Below are positions 16,512 to 18,644 of a stretch of 60,252 nucleotides of DNA, one piece after another (positions within the stretch are counted from its first letter, which is position 1; each line of letters begins with the position of its first letter). The stretch lies in IMG/VR virus record IMGVR_UViG_2562617057_000007; one strand, given 5' to 3'. The notes under the pieces are model-generated. The model searched no databases and was not told the origin of the DNA. It saw only the letters and a program-made list of their open reading frames with translations. The position numbers and the translations under genes are program-made. The DNA comes from a virus (Duplodnaviria; Heunggongvirae; Uroviricota; Caudoviricetes).

Positions 16512-16612
16512 TGTCAGCGCCAGTGATATAAGACGGTAATTCGCCATTTGGATTGTCCGCTCCACCCAACATGTTGTTTCCTTAAGGTTCTCACACCAGA
16601 AAGGACATCAAC

Positions 16613-17785
16613 ATGCTGAGCAGAGAGGACTTTTACATGATAAAGCAAATGCGCCAGCAGGGCGCGTACATCGTCGATATTGCGACTCAGATTGGTTGCT
16701 CTGAACGGACGGTCAGACGCTACCTCAAATACCCTGAACCGCCAGCCAGAAAGACCCGCCACAAAATGGTTAAGCTGAAACCGTTTATGGATTACATCGA
16801 CATGCGCCTGGCAGAGAATGTCTGGAATAGCGAGGTTATCTTCGCGGAGATTAAGGCAATGGGTTATACGGGCGGACGTTCCATGCTGCGTTACTACATC
16901 CAGCCCAAACGTAAAATGCGTCCGTCAAAAAGAACAGTTCGCTTCGAAACTCAGCCTGGATACCAGCTCCAGCATGACTGGGGCGAAGTTGAGGTGGAGG
17001 TTGCCGGGCAACGGTGCAAAGTTAACTTTGCGGTTAATACGCTGGGGTTCTCCCGCAGCTTCCATGTCTTCGCCGCACCAAAACAGGATGCTGAGCATAC
17101 CTACGAATCACTGGTTCGCGCCTTCCGCTACTTCGGTGGTTGTGTGAAAACGGTGCTGGTTGATAACCAGAAGGCTGCGGTGCTGAAGAATAACAACGGG
17201 AAAGTCGTGTTCAACTCCGGATTCCTGTTGCTGGCTGACCACTATAACTTCCTGCCACGGGCATGCCGTCCACGCAGGGCCAGAACAAAAGGTAAGGTTG
17301 AGCGGATGGTGAAATACCTCAAGGAGAACTTCTTCGTCCGGTACCGCAGGTTCGACAGCTTCACTCATGTCAATCAACAACTGGAGCAATGGATAGCCGA
17401 TGTGGCTGACAAACGGGAGCTTCGCCAGTTCAAAGAAACGCCGGAACAGCGCTTCGCGCTGGAGCAGGAACATCTGCAGCCGTTACCGGATACAGACTTC
17501 GATACCAGTTACTTCGATATCCGCCATGTGTCCTGGGACAGCTATATCGAGGTTGGTGGTAATCGTTACAGCGTTCCCGAAGCGCTGTGTGGTCAGCCGG
17601 TATCGATACGAATATCGCTGGATGACGAGTTGCGGATCTACAGTAATGAGAAACTGGTGGCCTCACATCGCCTCTGTTCAGCATCGTCTGGCTGGCAGAC
17701 AGTGCCGGAGCATCACGCCCCGCTCTGGCAGCAGGTCAGTCAGGTGGAACATCGACCACTGAGTGCCTATGAGGAGCTGTTGTGA
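16613..17785 (+). CDS. istA: IS21-family transposase IstA
   Basis: 390 aa; N-terminal HTH and DDE-type integrase core. Confidence 0.85.
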
Positions 17786-18582
17786 TGCATGAACTGGAAG
17801 TCCTGCTGAGTCGCCTGAAAATGGAGCATCTGAGTTATCACGTTGAAAGCCTGCTGGAACAGGCAGCTAAAAAAGAGCTGAACTACCGGGAGTTCCTGTG
17901 CATGGCGCTACAGCAGGAATGGAACGGCAGGCATCAGCGCGGTATGGAGTCCAGGCTGAAGCAGGCTCGTCTGCCGTGGGTCAAAACGCTGGAGCAGTTC
18001 GACTTTACCTTCCAGCCGGGCATCGACCGTAAGGTTGTCCGGGAACTGGCTGGTCTGGCGTTCGTGGAGCGCAGCGAAAACGTGATCCTGCTGGGCCCTC
18101 CTGGTGTCGGAAAAACTCATCTGGCCATAGCTCTTGGCGTGAAAGCGGTGGATGCGGGACATCGGGTACTGTTTATGCCACTGGACAGACTGATCGCGAC
18201 ACTGATGAAAGCGAAACAGGAAAACCGGCTGGAGCGTCAGCTACAGCAACTGAGTTATGCCCGGGTGTTGATCCTGGATGAAATAGGCTATCTGCCGATG
18301 AACAGAGAGGAAGCCAGTCTGTTCTTCCGGCTACTGAACCGTCGATATGAAAAAGCGAGCATCATACTGACGTCAAACAAAGGGTTCGCAGACTGGGGAG
18401 AAATGTTCGGAGATCACGTACTGGCAACAGCGATCCTGGATCGGCTGCTACATCACTCAACCACGCTGAATATCAAAGGAGAGAGTTACCGGTTAAAAGA
18501 GAAACGTAAAGCTGGAGTGCTGACCAAAAACACAACGCCAATCAGTGATGATGAAATGGTGGAAAGCGGACAGCATCAGTAA
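17782..18582 (+). CDS. istB: IS21-family helper ATPase IstB
   Basis: 266 aa; Walker [10 protein letters not shown] and Walker B LILDEIGY. Confidence 0.85.
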
Positions 18583-18644
18583 CGAAAGTATTTAGCGGGC
18601 ATGAAAATGGCAAATAACGGTCAAACATCGTGGCGTTGACACTG

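Follow-up and report, generated by a model that had tools for sequence, protein, structure and literature searches.

The window (the whole stretch of 60,252 nucleotides that was analysed) contains an IS21 element lying between tnpA and tnpB of the first of two IS66-family copies. The initial annotation had described an IS21-family element of 2130 bp at 16512-18641. End inspection and BLAST showed that the element is complete, lies on the plus strand, and had been delimited correctly to the single base. Its parts and its target duplication are as follows.

16508-16511: left CTGA copy, holding the tnpA stop codon TGA at 16509-16511 (sequence comparison)
16512-16522, plus strand: IS21 left terminal inverted repeat, TGTCAGCGCCA (sequence inspection)
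16613-17785, plus strand: istA, IS21 transposase of 390 aa with HTH, rve/DDE and Mu-transposase C-terminal domains (PF00665, PF22483; NF033546, E = 1.2e-84)
17785-18582, plus strand: istB, AAA+ helper ATPase of 265 aa (PF01695, E = 2.5e-90; NF038214, E = 3.1e-90)
18631-18641, plus strand: IS21 right terminal inverted repeat, TGGCGTTGACA (sequence inspection)
18642-18645: right CTGA copy, whose last A is base 1 of the tnpB ATG at 18645-18647 (sequence comparison)

The inverted repeats and the 4-bp CTGA duplication had both been claimed previously and were found again: the left end TGTCAGCGCCA matched the reverse-complemented right end TGTCAACGCCA at 10 of 11 positions, and CTGA was present on both flanks. 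The termini are 5'-TG...CA-3', as in the IS21 family, and the inverted-repeat similarity reaches ~50 bp inward, imperfectly and with one indel. The direct repeat across the junctions is really 8 bp (CACTGATG, at 16506-16513 and 18640-18647) because of microhomology, and therefore the IS21 ends cannot be placed from the junction alone. They were set by inverted-repeat symmetry and by other copies with the same terminal bases and unrelated flanks. A TG-n-TATAAG extended -10-like motif was read from the sequence at 16524-16532 in the left end, and an outward-facing -35-like TTGACA terminates the right repeat. A -10 box in the left terminal inverted repeat (TIR) and a -35 box in the right TIR have been described, and the TTGACA at the right end of IS21 is the -35 half of a promoter formed in IS21 tandems (PMC10122671).

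The istA stop overlaps the istB start (TGATG), both genes are intact, and the IstA (NF033546) and IstB (NF038214) scores exceed the curated cut-offs, giving the two-gene organization of the IS21 family. Over the entire 2130 bp the element matches, at 100% identity, many E. coli copies on chromosomes and plasmids that are annotated "IS21-like element IS21 family"; at least 80% of the element is present in 867 records. Copies with 100% identity occur at many different sites with duplications of their own (one of six sampled lacked one). The element shares with the IS21 prototype the istA-istB operon with TGATG overlap, the TG...CA ends, the multi-repeat TIRs, the 4-bp duplication and, as described in PMC10122671, the TTGACA -35 right end and the -10 left end. 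Copies that are ~99% identical measure 2131 bp, whereas the present one measures 2130 bp; this 1-bp difference, at 18591 in non-coding DNA past the istB stop, is the sole difference from known IS21. By RefSeq/PGAP naming the element is evidently IS21 itself, and the IstA/IstB profile matches and the full-length identity indicate that its terminal and duplication pattern is not due to chance. It is full-length and apparently functional.

The two IS66-family copies lie in the same orientation as IS21.

15785-20613, plus strand: IS66-family copy 1, 2695 bp of IS66 sequence split by IS21 plus 4 bp, with ends GTAACCGTCTC... and ...GAGCCGCTTAC
15870-16511, plus strand: tnpA (orfA) of copy 1, 213 aa, intact (NF038385 IS66_access_TnpA, E = 8.7e-82; PF01527)
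18645-18992, plus strand: tnpB (orfB) of copy 1, 115 aa, frame whole, native Shine-Dalgarno (SD) sequence and tnpA coupling predicted to be lost (PF05717; NF033819)
19012-20583, plus strand: tnpC (orfC) of copy 1, IS66 DDE transposase of 523 aa, intact, with its own SD (PF03050, E = 4e-104; NF033517)
20643-23337, plus strand: IS66-family copy 2, 2695 bp, uninterrupted (self-comparison)
20728-21369, 21369-21716 and 21736-23307, plus strand: tnpA, tnpB and tnpC of copy 2

The profiles NF038385, NF033819 and NF033517 all scored above their cut-offs, so the three ORFs of an IS66-family element are present, and the TIRs begin with GTAA (GTAACCGTCTC and GTAAGCGGCTC). E. coli O121 strain 201805972 carries copies that match the 2695-bp element at 100% identity from position 1 to 2695. 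The element shares with IS66 elements of the IS679, ISSfl3 and ISCro1 type a tnpA with HTH, a tnpB (PF05717), a tnpC (DDE_Tnp_IS66 with zinc finger and leucine zipper), the tnpA/tnpB overlap, the GTAA... terminal repeats and, at copy 2, the 8-bp duplication. PGAP gives the 2695-bp variant a generic IS66-family name only, whereas related copies are called ISSfl3 or ISCro1. The host element is evidently an ordinary three-ORF IS66-family member, a relative of the ISSfl3/ISCro1 type.

Comparison of the window with itself at 100% identity returned copy 1 as two segments, 15783-16513 and 18640-20613, and copy 2 unbroken at 20641-23337. When 16512-18645 (IS21 plus one CTGA) was removed, copy 1 equalled copy 2 at 2695 of 2695 bases; the insertion was therefore clean. 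Pairwise alignment of the copies, the check proposed with the initial annotation, confirmed the insertion point, and a search of the alignment for additional deletions or rearrangements at the junction revealed none. As had been stated, copy 2 retains the native junction, which reads ...AGCAGCCACTGATGATATC... at 21358-21383, with the overlapping tnpA stop and tnpB start (TGATG) at 21367-21371. Comparison with copy 2 also bore out the placement of the insertion in the TGATG overlap of copy 1. The site corresponds to IS66 positions 724-727, the CTGA of ...CAC TGA TG..., where a single A belongs to both the tnpA TGA and the tnpB ATG. The left duplicate supplies the TGA that ends tnpA in copy 1, and the right duplicate forms the ATG of tnpB, so that both reading frames are intact as claimed; their separation, given as 2.1 kb, was measured as 2134 bp.

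Both IS66 copies lie in a single host gene.

15579-23678, plus strand: host gene for a 186-aa hypothetical protein, in three pieces (15579-15784, 20621-20642 and 23346-23678)
15778-15784: left 7-bp target duplication of IS66 copy 1, GAAAAAC
20614-20620: right 7-bp target duplication of IS66 copy 1, GAAAAAC
20635-20642: left 8-bp target duplication of IS66 copy 2, ATTTATAC
23338-23345: right 8-bp target duplication of IS66 copy 2, ATTTATAC

To rebuild the empty site, the two IS66 copies were taken out together with one duplicate of each. The rebuilt site matched plasmids pEC2-4 (NZ_CP016184.1) and pE16EC0715-3 (CP088523.1) at 222 of 222 bases; on both plasmids it sits within an unbroken gene for a 186-aa hypothetical protein, and the rebuilt host protein was identical to the product of the pEC2-4 ORF. 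Judged against this verified empty site, the target duplication is 8 bp at copy 2 and 7 bp at copy 1. The reported IS66 duplication is 8 bp (PMC6778807), from which copy 1 differs. The two copies are evidently independent clean insertions, 14 bp apart and in the same orientation, into one gene. Identical, co-oriented copies at this distance, one of them with a 7-bp duplication, point to local hopping or to a preference for targets in this region.

Stacked repeats are handled badly by short-read assemblers, and the locus combines a pair of identical 2.7-kb IS66 copies with a multi-copy 2.1-kb IS, so a repeat collapse or mis-join could in principle have placed IS21 in IS66 copy 1. Such an artefact is hardly credible here. 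A mis-join would not give a perfect duplication of 4 bp, the length usual for IS21, and a base-perfect restoration of IS66; furthermore, each IS66 copy has its own duplication, and the empty site was verified.

The native tnpB has a GGGAG SD 9 nt from its start, within the 20 nt upstream of the ATG, and the predicted anti-SD duplex of -7.6 kcal/mol ranks in the top 2.4% of element positions. In copy 1, all the DNA ahead of tnpB position -4 is IS21 end sequence, and the best anti-SD pairing is -1.5 kcal/mol (79th percentile). An in-frame GTG at 18630 in copy 1 showed a pairing of -2.4 kcal/mol and no SD-like pairing. tnpC keeps its own SD (-7.8 kcal/mol), although this is close to the ATG. According to the section of PMC3469429 that cites Han et al. 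2001, the ORFs of the IS66 family are made by translational coupling, the distal one only after the proximal one. Given the predicted loss of the SD, the loss of a ribosome terminating at tnpA and the reported coupling, TnpB output from copy 1 should be much reduced, and TnpC output should perhaps fall too. The earlier proposal that orfB and orfC are uncoupled was supported in part: tnpB is predicted to have lost both its SD and its coupling to tnpA, whereas tnpC retains an SD of its own.

No plus-strand terminator-like site was found in 15600-20700, including the DNA after istB and between istB and tnpB. Because of this and of the shared orientation, tnpB and tnpC may be transcribed by read-through, and transcripts from IS66 or IS21 promoters could still cover both genes. 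A promoter scan detected no sigma-70 consensus promoter in 15600-20700. We also considered a hybrid outward promoter built on the TTGACA of the IS21 right end and rejected it. Inspection by eye found no -10-like hexamer at 16-18 bp spacing (17 bp gives TGCCGG), the promoter scan was likewise empty, and any start from such a promoter would fall downstream of the tnpB ATG.

If transcription continued from istAB or tnpA through tnpB and tnpC, and tnpB were adequately translated without an SD, the insertion would be functionally neutral and copy 1 would stay autonomous. Transposition of IS679 reportedly needs all three ORFs (ascribed to Han et al. 2001), a point against neutrality. The orientation of IS21 with the IS66 genes, the lack of a plus-strand terminator-like site in 15600-20700, the SD of tnpC and the intactness of every ORF and end would all allow this. 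Nevertheless, a neutral effect is unlikely, given pairing of -1.5 kcal/mol at the tnpB ATG and -2.4 kcal/mol at the GTG at 18630 against -7.6 kcal/mol at the native start, and given the description of the family as using translational coupling in the cited section of PMC3469429.

The loss of the tnpB SD and coupling would therefore make copy 1 probably non-autonomous. The initial annotation had gone further and considered copy 1 immobilised, a view that we do not retain. Both IS66 ends and both flanking duplications of copy 1 are intact, tnpC has kept its SD, no plus-strand terminator-like site was found, and an intact copy 2 with 100% identity lies 29 bp downstream and could supply proteins to copy 1 in trans. 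"Non-autonomous, maybe mobilisable in trans" is the better description. Another consequence can be envisaged: with TnpB and TnpC poorly made, copy 1 might be a TnpA-only producer that acts in trans as a regulator or inhibitor of copy 2 and of cellular IS66 relatives, or IS66::IS21 might be mobilised by copy 2 with active IS21 as cargo. The model for a TnpA-only inhibitor is the damping of transposition by OrfA proteins of the IS3 family. We regard this proposal as improbable.

The occurrence of the insertion elsewhere was examined with 120-bp queries over the left and right junctions; among 5,426 complete E. coli genomes, none yielded a match that spanned either one. A search of PLSDB plasmids with the left junction likewise gave no spanning match, and an exact 32-nt left-junction pattern had no match in GTDB representative genomes. 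The sole "full" match of the right junction (H121) consisted of two pieces 68 bp apart and represents a different insertion. Since no searched genome shares the junction, the insertion appears to be private to the source strain.

IS21-type elements produce target duplications of 4-5 bp. Six IS21 copies with 100% identity, picked by IS21 identity only with their flanks disregarded, had the duplications CAAC, TATA, GTTA, AAAG and GATAT, and none in one case; there was no consensus. The duplications of other IS21 copies are thus 4 bp and once 5 bp, and the CTGA in the window, at 4 bp, is of this short type. A studied IS21-family element has a 5 bp duplication and showed no clear target specificity in integration mapping (PMC10122671). 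An apparent CTGN/ACTG preference among eight copies from the junction search was rejected as selection bias, as those matches had been ranked by the likeness of their flanks to the query. The lack of a duplication consensus and the absence of the insertion from other genomes make the junction position look like chance.

Some related insertions bear on a possible target preference. On plasmid NZ_CP182379.1 an independent IS21 lies in a 97%-related IS66 element, in tnpA, 68 bp upstream of the present site, with the duplication AGGC; this is a weak hint of regional preference. On chromosome NZ_CP151017.1 the nesting is reversed, with an IS66 element inside IS21 istB flanked by an 8-bp duplication. 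IS21 was also found inside IS66 tnpC (NZ_CP119441.1) and in IS110, IS3 and IS91 genes. If IS21, through target capture by IstB, favoured this region of IS66 elements or other ISs generally, the position would not be due to chance. The insertion 68 bp upstream, the IS66 element within IS21, and the finding that four of six IS21 copies taken at random sit in genes of other ISs (IS66 tnpC among them) are what such targeting would lead one to expect. However, the duplications lack a consensus, the CTGN preference is an artefact of flank-matched BLAST selection, 0 of the 5,426 E. coli genomes have IS21 at this junction, and IS-in-IS matches are expected in genomes this rich in ISs and are harmless under selection. 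Targeting is thus very unlikely, and chance is the preferred explanation of the position.

Two other IS21 copies had unusual flanks. In NZ_CP026403.1 (locus positions 4437-4448), the sequence immediately flanking the IS21 right end (CTGGCGCTGTCC) is similar, at 10 of 12 positions, to a reverse-complemented IS21 left end (CTGGCGCTGACA), so this IS21 may have landed beside the remnant of another IS21 end. In NZ_CP065616.1, an IS21 with 100% identity (locus positions 301-2430) has no matching duplication, with CTTT on the left and GATG on the right, and abuts a truncated ISSfl3-type IS66 transposase gene on one side. This arrangement points to a deletion alongside the element or to recombination of IS21 copies with one another.

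The best explanation of the locus as a whole, covering both the assignment and the structure, is that a full-length IS21 transposed cleanly into IS66 copy 1, lowered tnpB expression and took up its position by chance; we hold this to be very probable. IS21 would have entered through its usual 4-bp staggered cut at CTGA and landed at the gene junction by chance, without targeting. The left duplicate gives tnpA its TGA and the right duplicate gives tnpB its ATG, and the IS21 end takes the place of the tnpB GGGAG, so that ribosomes finishing tnpA would no longer reach tnpB. TnpB of copy 1 would fall sharply, and TnpC perhaps, leaving copy 1 non-autonomous but not dead. Copy 2 could act on the ends of copy 1 in trans and move either the 4829-bp IS66::IS21 or a 7.55-kb unit of copy 1 and copy 2, and IS21 itself would still be free to transpose. 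The insertion would have persisted, probably because an IS-in-IS insertion costs the host nothing.

Nesting of one IS within another is routine in the IS-rich genomes and plasmids of Shigella and enteroinvasive E. coli. The event described here is an ordinary nested transposition of this known kind, of the IS-rich E. coli/Shigella type: it is the same clean IS-in-IS insertion, and only its exact position differs. The sole unusual detail relative to other nestings is that the 4-bp duplication regenerates a stop and a start codon, so that neither gene is broken. Both element families are known, and the insertion has little importance beyond annotation. It does provide a natural allele in which tnpA is separated from tnpB, with undamaged frames and an isogenic intact copy 29 bp away. 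Such an allele is suited to asking whether expression of IS66 TnpB and TnpC needs translational coupling, and whether the proteins act in trans.

The window begins at yfhL in a chromosome of the E. coli/Shigella type and continues into a prophage, which occupies 1-8129 and 31900-57000; its integrase gene spans 470-1873, and the genes for lysis, terminase and structural proteins begin at ~32400. In strain VL7S7 the DNA polymerase gene measures 2835 bp, but here the prophage version stops short at 8129, which marks the prophage as degraded. Within the prophage sits an inserted island of ~22.8 kb (~9075-31905) that houses the IS nest. The island carries two tyrosine recombinase genes (9222-10592 and 10589-12139) and, after them, an 800-aa ORF, for which Pfam gave no match, and a 147-aa ORF; this gene order is that of the ginA-ginB-ginC-ginD genes of GInt elements (PMC10214605). 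Its cargo is a type I restriction-modification system at 23987-31453 on the minus strand. Several plasmids of E. coli, Klebsiella and Salmonella carry the same island free of these ISs. Plasmid LR890477.1 of K. pneumoniae runs directly from window position 15006 to 23694 and has neither the small regulator/antitoxin genes nor the 186-aa target gene, so this segment varies between island copies. The layering, with the prophage first, then the integrase island, then the two IS66 copies and then IS21, would be useful for strain typing; copies 1 and 2 do not differ at any base, which is compatible with insertion of IS21 either before or after copy 2 arose. A further match, to IS2 (1.33 kb, >99% identical), lies at ~54401-55732 in the late region of the prophage.
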